Below, piece by piece: positions 60,174 through 63,300 of a DNA stretch of 64,000 nucleotides; the first letter of the stretch is position 1; every line of letters starts with the position of its first letter. The position numbers and the translations under genes were made by a program. This DNA comes from Bacteroides sp. (GTDB lineage: Bacteria; Bacteroidota; Bacteroidia; Bacteroidales; Bacteroidaceae). The notes beneath the pieces are model-generated. The model saw only the letters and a list, made by a program, of their open reading frames with translations, did no database searches and was not told the DNA's origin. The stretch is taken from contig SUXY01000001.1 of the NCBI GenBank assembly GCA_015060705.1, positions 6,525 through 70,524 of the forward strand, in the 5' to 3' direction.

Positions 60174-61841
60174 ATGAAAACAGACATTGAAATTGCTCGA
60201 AGTATTGAATTGAAGAAAATAAAGGAATTGGCCAAGTCCGTAGGGATGCCTGAAGATCATGTAACCCATTATGGACGACACATGGCCAAAGTAGATATCA
60301 GCTTGATTGACGATGAAAAGATCAAGAACAATCATTTGATTCTGGTAACCGCCATTACGCCTACCAAGGCGGGTATCGGTAAGACCACCGTATCCGTGGG
60401 CTTGGCCTTAGGCTTGAACCACATCGGCAAGAATGCGATTGTAGCCCTTCGCGAACCTTCCCTCGGACCTTGCTTTGGGATGAAGGGTGGGGCAGCCGGT
60501 GGTGGCTATGCCCAAGTCCTCCCGATGGAAAAAATTAACCTCCACTTCACGGGAGACTTCCATGCCATTACCTCGGCCAACAACATGATCTCGGCTCTGT
60601 TGGACAATTACATTTATCAGAACCGTGATAATGGCTTTGGTTTGAAAGAAATCCTTTGGCGTCGTGTATTAGACGTGAATGACCGCTCGCTTCGCTACAT
60701 CGTAACGGGTCTCGGTCCAAAGACCAACGGTATCACCCAAGAATCAGGTTTCGACATTACTCCGGCTTCGGAAATCATGGCTATCCTTTGCTTGGCCAAG
60801 GATGAAGATGATTTGCGTCGTCGTATTGAGAATATCCTTCTCGGCTTTACTTACGACAATAAACCTTTCACCGTAAAGGACTTGGGTGTTGCAGGAGCTA
60901 TTACCGTTCTCTTGAAGGATGCTCTTTCACCTAACCTCGTACAAACGACCGAAAATACACCTGCATTCGTACATGGTGGTCCTTTTGCCAACATCGCCCA
61001 TGGATGCAACTCTGTATTAGCTACCAAATTGGCTATGACTTTCGGCGATTATGCCATTACAGAAGCTGGTTTCGGTGCCGACCTCGGTGCAGAAAAGTTC
61101 TATGACATCAAGTGCCGCAAAGCTGGTTTGAATCCAAAACTTACCGTACTTGTTGTAACCGCACGTGCCTTGAAGATGCATGGTGGTGTATCACAAGACA
61201 TCGTTGGCCAACCAAACCTCGAAGCGTTGAAGGTGGGTATTGCCAACATGGACAAACACCTTGACAATTTGTTGAAATTCGGTCAAAACGTGGTCGTAGC
61301 CTTCAATCGTTATGGCGATGATGTGGAAGACGAAATCGATTATGTACGCCAACATTGTGCTGAATTGGGTATCGGATTTGCCGTGAACAATGCCTTTGTT
61401 GAAGGTGGTAAGGGTGCCGTAGAACTGGCTAATCTTGTGGTAAAGACCATCGAAGAAAATCCGTCAAAAGAGTTGAAATTCGCATACAAGGACGAAGATG
61501 AAGTAAAGGACAAGGTATGCAAAGTAGCTTGTAATCTTTATGGTGCCAAGTTAGTGACATTCAGTCCTACCGCTAAAAAGAAATTGGCAATAATTGAGGA
61601 GTTGGGATATACCCATTTCCCAATTTGTATTGCCAAGACCCAATACTCTTTCTCAACCAATGCGAAGCTTGTCAATGTGCCTAAGGACTTCGAATTCCAT
61701 GTACAAGACATCGTTATCAATGCCGGTGCCGAAATGCTGGTAGTTATCTCTGGTGAAATCATGCGTATGCCGGGATTGCCAAAGAATCCACAAGCGTTAC
61801 ATATTGATATTGTGAACGGTCAAATCGAAGGTTTGTCCTAA
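60174..61841 (+). CDS. fhs: Formate--tetrahydrofolate ligase
   Basis: [63 protein letters not shown]. Confidence 0.97.
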
Positions 61842-61877
61842 AAGAAAAGGAGTGGGGTGAATCATCACCCCACTCCT
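61842..61877 (-). terminator. Intrinsic terminator whose 5' arm is the last codons of queL
   Basis: Minus strand AGGAGTGGGGTGA-TGAT-TCACCCCACTCCT-TTTCTTTT; 13-bp perfect stem. Confidence 0.8.
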
Positions 61878-62554
61878 AAATCCGTATTCTCCATCAATAC
61901 CTCTATCCGCGGATCATCCTTGATCATCGGATAAACCTCTTTCGCAAACCAGGAGGCTAATTCCTTGTCTTGCTTTATTGAAGTATGGTTATCACAAAAC
62001 ACATTCACACTGAAGTATTCAAAATGTGCCTTGGCCAGCTCAATGTCTTTCAGGATGTGCTCCTTGGTTTCTCCTTGCGTACAACACAATAGACAAATGC
62101 CTTGGAAATGTTGAGCGATGTCTTGAACGGAAACCGATGATGGGATTCCTTTCTTCCATGCCTCCCGAAGAGCCGTATCAAAGGTTTCTACCCCACAACG
62201 GAACTTCACCTTGGCAGGCGCAAATTGTTCGGCAAAGGAAGCCAGTTTTTTACGAAACATGTAGTGCGCCTCGAACCAAAGGGTATGAATCTTTTTCTCC
62301 TTTACCACTTCTTTGATGAAGGCTATGGTTTCTTCATCAAGTTCCATGGCCGAACCGGAATTAATCACATCAAGCACTCCATATTGCCCTGTTACTTGAC
62401 GCAAAACGGGCTCGTTCACTTCGAAGGGACGCTCGCTCACATCTTCGTGGTAATCGCAAAACGTACACTTCCGCCAACGACACCCCATCCCTTGCAACAA
62501 GACAAATTCCCGGGGCATCTTGGTCGATATCAACGCGTATCTATCCATGATCAT
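61865..62554 (-). CDS. queL: Queuine lyase QueL (compact radical SAM enzyme)
   Basis: 229 aa; RY...REFVLL, CRWRKCTFCDY (CX4CX2C), VTGQYGVLDVINSGS, FEAHY, GVETFD and C-terminal NTDLGVG match clostridial QueL as recalled. ATGA-coupled to a queuosine-precursor transporter gene. Confidence 0.8.
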   Translation of the reverse strand: MIMDRYALISTKMPREFVLLQGMGCRWRKCTFCDYHEDVSERPFEVNEPVLRQVTGQYGVLDVINSGSAMELDEETIAFIKEVVKEKKIHTLWFEAHYMFRKKLASFAEQFAPAKVKFRCGVETFDTALREAWKKGIPSSVSVQDIAQHFQGICLLCCTQGETKEHILKDIELAKAHFEYFSVNVFCDNHTSIKQDKELASWFAKEVYPMIKDDPRIEVLMENTDLGVG

Positions 62555-63189
62555 TCCAATTTAAGCACGTAGCGACGCAAAGCATGAATCACGGCATATG
62601 CCATCGGGGTACCAAAAACCGACTCGATGAGCAACTTCACACCATATTGGAAGGCGATCATCATCAAGAGGTCGTGAGTGGAAACAATACCCAAGAAAGC
62701 GATGAGCACGAAAGGTAAGGAATCGAACAGATAAGCCACCGCCGAACTACCGATTGTACGGACCCAAAGGTGTTTACCCTTCGTCTTTATCTTGATTTTT
62801 TCCATGAGCCATGCATTGGAAAGTTCACCCAAAAGGAAACCCACCAACGAGCCGATCACGATTCGAGGAACATAGGAGAACAGATGATTATAGGCCGTCT
62901 CCGTTTCCGCCAGATAATCGGGCGAAGGGAGCCATACCCCTATCTGTGTACAAATCACCATGAGGATATTACAGAAGAAGGTCATCCAAATCACTTTTCG
63001 AGCGGTCTTGAAGCCCCACAACTCCGTGAGGACATCGCCCAGCATATAAGCAAAAGGGAAGGTGATGGTACCTGCGTCGAAATAGAAGAGACCGAAAATA
63101 CTAATGACCTTGACGGCCATAATGTTGGATACCAAATAGAGTGTTACGAAGAGGGCCGTGATGGTCATTAACGCCGTGTGGCTACTCAT
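62551..63189 (-). CDS. yhhQ: Queuosine precursor transporter (YhhQ/QPTR, VUT family)
   Basis: VSNIMAVK, DAGTITFPFAYMLGDVLTELWG, PRIVIGSL, LWVRTIGSS..DS..F..IAF. Probable start is ATG 63189; the ORF-track start at 63228 would include the riboswitch. Confidence 0.9.
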   Translation of the reverse strand: MSSHTALMTITALFVTLYLVSNIMAVKVISIFGLFYFDAGTITFPFAYMLGDVLTELWGFKTARKVIWMTFFCNILMVICTQIGVWLPSPDYLAETETAYNHLFSYVPRIVIGSLVGFLLGELSNAWLMEKIKIKTKGKHLWVRTIGSSAVAYLFDSLPFVLIAFLGIVSTHDLLMMIAFQYGVKLLIESVFGTPMAYAVIHALRRYVLKLE

Positions 63190-63224
63190 TCGGTTTTTTT
63201 TAAAAGGGTGTTCCGATACCTTTT
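63190..63224 (-). ncRNA. Class I preQ1 riboswitch aptamer (predicted)
   Basis: AAAAGG-UAUCGGAACAC-CCUUUU-AAAAAAAA-CCGA-(AUG): 6-bp P1, loop beginning with U and ending in AC, A-rich L3, 4-bp P2 pseudoknot UCGG/CCGA. Lies directly upstream of yhhQ-queL. Confidence 0.8.
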
Positions 63225-63231
63225 TCATTTT

Positions 63232-63253
63232 CTGATTACTGATTACTGATTAC
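63232..63253. repeat. Heptamer tandem repeat (CTGATTA)x3 in the yhhQ leader
   Basis: CTGATTACTGATTACTGATTAC. Confidence 0.85.
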
Positions 63254-63258
63254 GTGGG

Positions 63259-63266
63259 CAAAGGTA
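63259..63266 (-). promoter_or_regulatory. -7 promoter element (TACCTTTG) for yhhQ-queL
   Basis: Exact TAnnTTTG just past the GH92 terminator; places the aptamer inside a ~65-nt 5' UTR. Confidence 0.65.
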
Positions 63267-63267
63267 T

Positions 63268-63300
63268 AAAAAAAATAGGTATGGAGAATATCCATACCTA
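63268..63300 (-). terminator. Intrinsic terminator of the GH92 gene
   Basis: TAGGTATGGA-TATTC-TCCATACCTA followed by T8 on the minus strand. Confidence 0.85.

Follow-up and report, generated by a model that had tools for sequence, protein, structure and literature searches.

In Clostridioides difficile, the queK-qrtT-queL operon (CD1682-CD1684) lies behind a riboswitch of the prequeuosine 1 (preQ1)-I class (Yuan et al., 2019, as summarised in PMC11477304 and PMC11570991), and control of queL, queK and yhhQ by preQ1 riboswitches has been published (PMC11477304; PMC12519234). QueL has also been counted across 13,027 gut genomes (PMC11130926). Here we describe a two-gene operon, yhhQ-queL, in a 64,000-nt stretch of a Bacteroides sp. 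genome (assembly GCA_015060705.1, contig SUXY01000001.1, positions 6,525 to 70,524; hereafter the window), together with a preQ1-I-like pseudoknot found at the beginning of its first gene. Since riboswitch-controlled queL and yhhQ are already in the literature and YhhQ-QueL pairs are known from other phyla, the module is not new in kind. Two of its aspects may be new, namely the strict complementarity of QueL with queC inside a genus of the Bacteroidaceae and the position of the aptamer inside an open reading frame (ORF).

We read the module as an operon for indirect queuine salvage, with a probable preQ1 shut-off through the pseudoknot inside the ORF, and we assign this reading a probability of roughly 0.7. 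An importer of the YhhQ/QPTR family would bring in a precursor of queuosine, for which the free base queuine is the likeliest candidate, and the co-transcribed QueL would cleave queuine to preQ1. A canonical tRNA-guanine transglycosylase (TGT) of the preQ1 type would then insert preQ1 into tRNA, and QueA and QueH would finish queuosine (Q). The operon would be the only recognisable source of preQ1, because the lineage is without queC and queF. The initial annotation, made from the letters of the window, had proposed that the cell imports free queuine, strips it to preQ1 and rebuilds Q, and this proposal is supported by the homology of QueL, by a preQ1-type tgt along with queA and queH, by the failure to find queC or queF, and by the operon yhhQ being the sole Vut_1 gene of the window's genome.

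With the C. difficile operon, the locus shares a QueL step, a co-transcribed importer, a host that lacks the de novo route to preQ1, and riboswitch control of the preQ1 type, which is putative here. The two differ in the importer, which is a YhhQ/QPTR protein here and an ECF (energy-coupling factor) S-component in C. difficile, in the phylum, here Bacteroidota, and in the aptamer, which lies inside the ORF. In addition, QueK is found neither in the operon, as had been noted from the start, nor, within the searches made, elsewhere in the genome.

The assignment of the second gene depends on PDB 6P78 chain A ('Queuine lyase'), which was taken as the reference for QueL in a search of solved structures; two cluster look-ups did not return the C. 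difficile sequence. The radical S-adenosylmethionine (SAM) protein had this chain as its sole solved-structure match (6p78_A, E 2e-52, 181 bits), residues 3-229 aligning with residues 23-250, with an identity of about 43% as counted in the printed alignment. The two proteins share the Cx4Cx2C spacing and end alike in TDxGVG. The CX4CX2C motif and NTDLGVG end described in the initial annotation of the 229-aa protein are thus confirmed, the cysteines being C25, C30 and C33 and the C-terminus matching the ...PTDFGVG of PDB 6P78. These three cysteines are invariant in 40 diverse members of the family, as are E16, L20, E123 and K135. The family is small, 1.84 billion proteins yielding 356 representatives of it at 50% identity, and its named members come from Firmicutes (Clostridiales, Bacilli, Erysipelotrichia and Succinispira), Leptotrichia and Rifleibacterium. 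No curated hidden Markov model exists for it: Pfam gave a sub-threshold Radical_SAM match and NCBIfam a weak RaSEA match. As the relatives in databases carry only the labels 'radical SAM protein' or 'hypothetical protein', the correct name would be useful.

By this full-length match, on which the homology check rested, the radical SAM protein belongs with QueL, as had been supposed; it is a QueL homologue for which conversion of queuine to preQ1 is predicted. The identity of only about 43% to the solved enzyme, the missing curated model and the weak Radical_SAM and RaSEA matches would also suit a QueL paralogue that carries out another reaction on another 7-deazaguanine compound, but such a paralogue appears very improbable given an alignment to 6P78 that is full-length and retains the same motifs, a family that is small and consistently linked to Q-salvage genes, and a distribution complementary to that of queC.

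Genes of the Q pathway were searched in five module-bearing genomes, namely the window's own (G000), which is 88% complete, and G139, G083, G426 and G238. Both tgt and queA were present in all five and queG in four. In the window's genome, where the salvage proposal had been tied to the presence of tgt and queA, these two genes were found together with queH, and queC, queF and a QueK-type gene were not. More broadly, neither queC nor queF was found in four of the five genomes, the window's among them, some of which are 99-100% complete; the exception, G083, retains a separate yhhQ-queC-queF cluster besides the module. The window's genome gave no match to IU-nucleoside hydrolases (QueK-type) and none to Qng1, for which the control was likewise silent. 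Two queA-like genes occur in each of the five genomes, and the second (G000:C55:2539-3729) matches the model in two pieces; in G000, G139, G083, G426 and G238 it forms one longer open frame of 404-527 aa.

TGTs that use queuine carry the motif GG[LS][AS]G, and those of the E. coli type, which use preQ1, carry GGLAVG (PMC11570991). The TGT of the window's genome has the motifs ...AFDECTPG... and ...GGLAVGE... and is hence of the E. coli type; because it keeps GGLAVGE, it should need preQ1, the compound that QueL is predicted to supply. This separates the locus from direct salvage in Chlamydia trachomatis, with which it shares a YhhQ/QPTR protein as the presumed queuine importer: in Chlamydia an altered TGT (GG[LS][AS]G) inserts queuine directly, whereas here GGLAVGE stands together with QueL, QueA and QueH, so that the route would be indirect.

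The distribution of QueL points in the same direction as the pathway genes. Sampling of 151 genomes of the family, 301 of the order and 401 of the phylum gave QueL in 15, 5 and 1, respectively, with the window's genome counted each time; the 400 other Bacteroidota genomes gave no QueL match and therefore offer no further aptamer variants for the study of covariation. Within the genus, where the related genomes compared are not independent and several are incomplete, queC scored over the cut-off in 24 of 31 genomes, and QueL was absent from all 24 but present in four of the seven without queC (G000, G465, G464 and, as a fragment, G455). This complementarity fits a replacement of synthesis by salvage.

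The 21 QueLs of Bacteroidales group together in a quick, unrooted maximum-likelihood tree, with the long-branched, unlabelled P0140 falling unresolved among them. Their sister is P0121 (97 in the Shimodaira-Hasegawa-like approximate likelihood ratio test, SH-aLRT), the contig of which carries a spoIIIA operon, the mark of a spore-forming Firmicute. Acquisition of QueL from Firmicutes, which had been raised as a possibility, is consistent with both tree and distribution, the direction of transfer being our reading of them. A further QueL-like gene, long-branched and encoding 218 aa (L059, 3001-3657), has no yhhQ with it; its neighbours are crcB and a gene for a TonB-dependent receptor, and the metagenomic contig probably belongs to another lineage of Bacteroidota.

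The first gene of the operon, yhhQ (62551..63228, minus strand; 225 aa from the conserved start codon, here called ATG1), encodes a QPTR queuosine-precursor transporter by family models: it matches Pfam PF02592 Vut_1 with 162 bits and 1.5e-47 (cut-off 27.2) and TIGR00697 with 116 bits and 1.7e-33 (cut-off 51), and reaches only 51 bits against the E. coli-type equivalog NF008406 (cut-off 252). In all 21 Bacteroidales loci examined, yhhQ lies directly 5' of queL. The YhhQ proteins of these modules are 71-83% identical to one another, 33% identical to the queC-linked Bacteroides paralogue, the closest found, and 26-28% identical to the QueL-linked YhhQs of two other lineages. These are two unrelated metagenomic lineages of other phyla in which the YhhQ-QueL pairing is also present. 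The two genes seem to have been paired on more than one occasion, and this in itself speaks for a functional link between the two proteins. As the YhhQ here differs widely from those linked to QueL in other phyla, the pair in this lineage was probably assembled locally.

That YhhQ imports queuine we infer from its operon partner. It might instead import preQ1 or prequeuosine 0 (preQ0), like the YhhQ of E. coli, in which case QueL would use queuine from another route or be dispensable; the closest paralogue found, at 33%, is indeed the queC-linked one of Bacteroides, and the specificity of QPTR proteins varies between species and is unreadable from family membership (PMC11570991). Against such a preQ1 importer, which we consider rather improbable, stand the strict co-operonic pairing in 21 of 21 loci and the lack of any other Vut_1 gene in the genome. 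Moreover, no QueK or Qng1 was found in the genome that could release queuine inside the cell, and QueL would therefore have no evident substrate if queuine were not imported.

The preQ1-I (type II)-like element is an H-type pseudoknot of 34 nt (63190..63223, minus strand) that lies inside codons 3-12 or 3-13 of yhhQ. On the minus strand it is laid out as AUG AAA-AAGG-UA-UCGG-AACAC-CCUU(U)-UAAAAAAAA-CCGA-AUG, with stem P1 AAAGG/CCUUU (63223-63219 with 63207-63203), loop L1 UA, stem P2 UCGG/CCGA (63216-63213 with 63193-63190), loop L2 AACAC and loop L3 UAAAAAAAA. This architecture matches that of the aptamers of Bacillus subtilis (Bsu) and Thermoanaerobacter tengcongensis (Tte). The C at 63208, immediately before the 3' strand of P1, is what we take to be the specificity C of preQ1-I aptamers, and the U after P1, this C and the A-tract presumably occupy the positions of ligand contact in Bsu/Tte-type aptamers. 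In common with type II preQ1-I riboswitches (T. tengcongensis; B. subtilis queC; PMC11625349), the element has an H-type pseudoknot, AC before the 3' strand of P1, U after its 5' strand, a P2 of 4 bp and an A-rich L3. Unlike them, it follows the start codon, falls below the detection of Rfam, has no Shine-Dalgarno or terminator platform and has a P1 that is shorter and rich in A-U pairs.

The initial annotation had listed an aptamer after the promoter and ahead of the transporter gene. A pseudoknot-like element is indeed present, but its placement has to be revised, since it lies between ATG1 (63226..63228, minus strand), found in 21 of 21 related loci, and a lineage-specific in-frame second ATG directly 3' of the element (ATG2, 63187..63189, minus strand), found only in the window's genome and G465. 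In all 21 loci, an ATG stands 3-6 nt 5' of the aptamer, and the frame remains open from ATG1 into the YhhQ core through linkers of six lengths (22-27 codons), with no stops and with insertions and deletions in multiples of three. Because ATG1 is kept, the frame is open through the linkers and promoter boxes lie 20-45 nt before ATG1, the aptamer-like element is read as codons 3-12 or 3-13 of yhhQ and not as an untranslated leader.

Database gene calls for this species disagree on the point, giving either 225 aa (from ATG1) or 212 aa (from ATG2, in a metagenome call). Were translation to start at ATG2 here, the aptamer would be an ordinary element of the 5' untranslated region (UTR) that ends exactly on the start codon, as the direct succession of P2 and ATG2 in G000 and G465 and the 212-aa call would allow. 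We regard this as unlikely, because the other 19 loci do not have ATG2 and several of them lack any in-frame start close by, ATG1 and the frame behind it are conserved as described, and the promoter box leaves about 25 nt before ATG1, a normal leader for Bacteroides.

The 30-nt core of the in-ORF element is almost invariant in the 21 related loci, and both flanks are unalignable and hypervariable. The proposed pairing, eight pairs in all, is intact in 98.7% of cells (19 loci), as compared with 70% or less when the partners are slid. An invariant third base is seen in 14 of the 221 ungapped codon columns, and half of these (7/14) fall within the first 17 columns. Where the residue itself is invariant and is neither M nor W (n=81), the third base is frozen in three columns only (K3, P8 and K10), all inside the element, so that synonymous sites are frozen in 3/3 invariant-residue codons inside the element versus 0/78 elsewhere; in three further columns inside it, the third base is kept even though the residue changes. 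As the comparison was made within one alignment, shared ancestry does not explain the frozen sites, and the constraint on the element acts on nucleotides.

These data also bear on whether the element senses a ligand at all. It might represent a conserved N-terminal peptide (MxKVSENPFKNR), an A-rich enhancer of initiation or a site for a protein or small RNA, with the operon being constitutive or otherwise regulated; it is translated in frame in all 21 loci, it has no Rfam PreQ1 match and a single compensatory pair, and A-rich starts are typical of Bacteroidetes. A role of this kind seems to us unlikely, though, since the encoded residues vary (S/A/T, E/D, N/H, F/L/S) where the bases are fixed, third codon positions are frozen only within the element, the pairing geometry and the presumed ligand-contact bases match preQ1-I, and the yhhQ family is classically under preQ1 riboswitches (PMC5372724). 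A relaxed pseudoknot pattern gave 18 matches in 5.9 Mb on both strands, and only the present copy is beside a Q gene.

Several observations weigh against salvage under preQ1 control as we have set it out. Rfam RF00522 (PreQ1; gathering score 39 bits) gave no match at E<=10, whether 251 nt or 61 nt were scanned. PreQ1 was likewise not matched when three window sizes of the region were tried, nor in 16 related loci; in a whole-genome RF00522 search, 150 of 350 candidates were scored. Because the element hardly varies, covariation is limited to one compensatory change, from U-A to G-C in P2 (L016), and six of the eight pairs never vary. P1 is short, with 4-5 pairs that are mostly A-U, and stability is not predicted for the RNA in isolation. 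In the literature searched, no preQ1-I aptamer is described as lying within an ORF. As for the genes, the 88% completeness makes absences in G000 alone soft, and with identities of only 26-28% and 33% to the YhhQs compared, the substrate of YhhQ cannot be read from similarity. Minimum free energy (MFE) folding of the leader found no significant structure, as expected for a pseudoknot.

The yhhQ-queC-queF clusters of the same family (G083, G048 and G466) provide a yardstick for the Rfam result. They likewise have yhhQ as the first gene and a type-II-like pseudoknot with an A-tract; they differ in that their YhhQ is the paralogue with 33% identity and that the operon serves the synthesis of preQ1 and not its salvage. 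Their leaders (L034, 764-803; L052, 750-791; L053) have the pseudoknot in the 5' UTR, where it ends 4-8 nt before the ATG. The Rfam PreQ1 model gave 11.2 bits for the leader of G048 (L052) and nothing for that of G083 (L034), so that these leaders appear to lie under the gathering score, and it also misses a canonical-looking element in L027. The Rfam negative on the in-ORF element therefore weighs little, because a conventional leader in the same genus scores only 11.2 bits.

As for the switching mechanism, preQ1 would probably shut off expression via the 34-nt pseudoknot, which begins about four to five bases past the start codon. Once bound to its ligand, the pseudoknot would fill the part of the mRNA that has to stay single-stranded on the 30S subunit and would thereby block initiation or accommodation, a block for which no Shine-Dalgarno sequence would be needed. 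Bacteroidetes largely do not use Shine-Dalgarno sequences. None is present at this locus, and no terminator lies 3' of the element. The more specific proposal, that an aptamer derived from preQ1-I moved into coding sequence and, starting one codon past the yhhQ AUG and translated as codons 3-12, became a Shine-Dalgarno-independent translational OFF switch in Bacteroidales with the pseudoknot in the mRNA channel at +7 to +39, is advanced tentatively, and we would put its chances slightly below even.

In most of the 21 related loci (L010-L023 and L029-L032), a hairpin of 5-10 bp and variable sequence follows the aptamer at 1-5 nt, within the variable linker codons (36 nt examined). Its mean z is -1.5 against mononucleotide shuffles, and in nine loci 5% of shuffles or fewer fold as well. 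In the genus of the window (G000, G465 and G464; 63150-63189 in the window), it is weak or missing. This hairpin may belong to the expression platform.

Animals are unable to synthesise the micronutrient queuine and have to obtain it from the diet and the microbiota. Bacteroides species are typically able to synthesise Q (PMC11130926), and the operon would mark lineages of Bacteroidaceae that lost queC and queF and became consumers. That QueL occurs only in queC-lacking genomes of the sampled genus matters for models of the exchange of Q precursors in gut communities. To our knowledge, the mode of action of translational riboswitches in Bacteroidota is poorly understood. If the in-ORF aptamer binds preQ1, it would be a simple example of how a riboswitch controls translation without a Shine-Dalgarno sequence, and a natural riboswitch in which the entire aptamer is constrained at once as RNA and as protein-coding sequence.

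The operon is a compact unit of promoter box, yhhQ, queL and terminator on the minus strand, between the convergent fhs and a GH92 gene. The parts listed in the initial annotation (promoter, aptamer-like element, transporter, radical SAM gene, terminator and the two flanking genes) were all recovered at their places. Inspection of the sequence identified a putative Bacteroidetes-type -7 promoter box, TAccTTTG (63259..63266, minus strand), and a TAnnTTTG box recurs 20-45 nt 5' of ATG1 in many of the 21 related loci; a sigma-70 scan gave no match at the yhhQ promoter, as expected for the phylum Bacteroidetes. The leader from promoter box to ATG1 measures about 25 nt. It is filled at 63232-63252 (minus strand) by three tandem GTAATCA units, and the leader of L015 has a similar run of ATAATTC.

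The queL gene (61865..62554, minus strand), the radical SAM queuine lyase homologue identified through PDB 6P78, encodes 229 aa, or 227 aa from an alternative start at 62548; its homologues and the database gene calls start two codons later, which gives 227 aa. The ATGA coupling of queL to yhhQ seen in the initial annotation is present as an overlap of the yhhQ stop and queL start codons at 62551-62554, and this overlap is not kept in related loci. An intrinsic terminator closes the operon (61840..61877, minus strand), with a hairpin from 61877 to 61848 that has a 13-bp stem with eight GC pairs and a 4-nt loop and is followed by TTTCTTTT; its 5' arm overlaps the last codons of queL.

Of the flanking genes, fhs, which is convergent to the operon, was identified as FTHFS (821 bits), and a GH92 glycosidase gene (279 bits) has its 3' end just 5' of the operon. 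The GC content gave no foreign signal. In the nearest relative, G465, synteny with the window reaches only to 61846, right after the fhs stop codon, an arrangement that neither establishes nor rules out that the module was inserted between fhs and the GH92 gene. On the same contig of G465 (L041, 2443-3942), about 5.9 kb separates fhs from the yhhQ-queL module, with two small overlapping ORFs (104 and 99 aa) in between. Finally, a 10-bp hairpin at 63276-63300, flanked by T-runs on both strands, acts as terminator for the GH92 gene and insulates the promoter of yhhQ.

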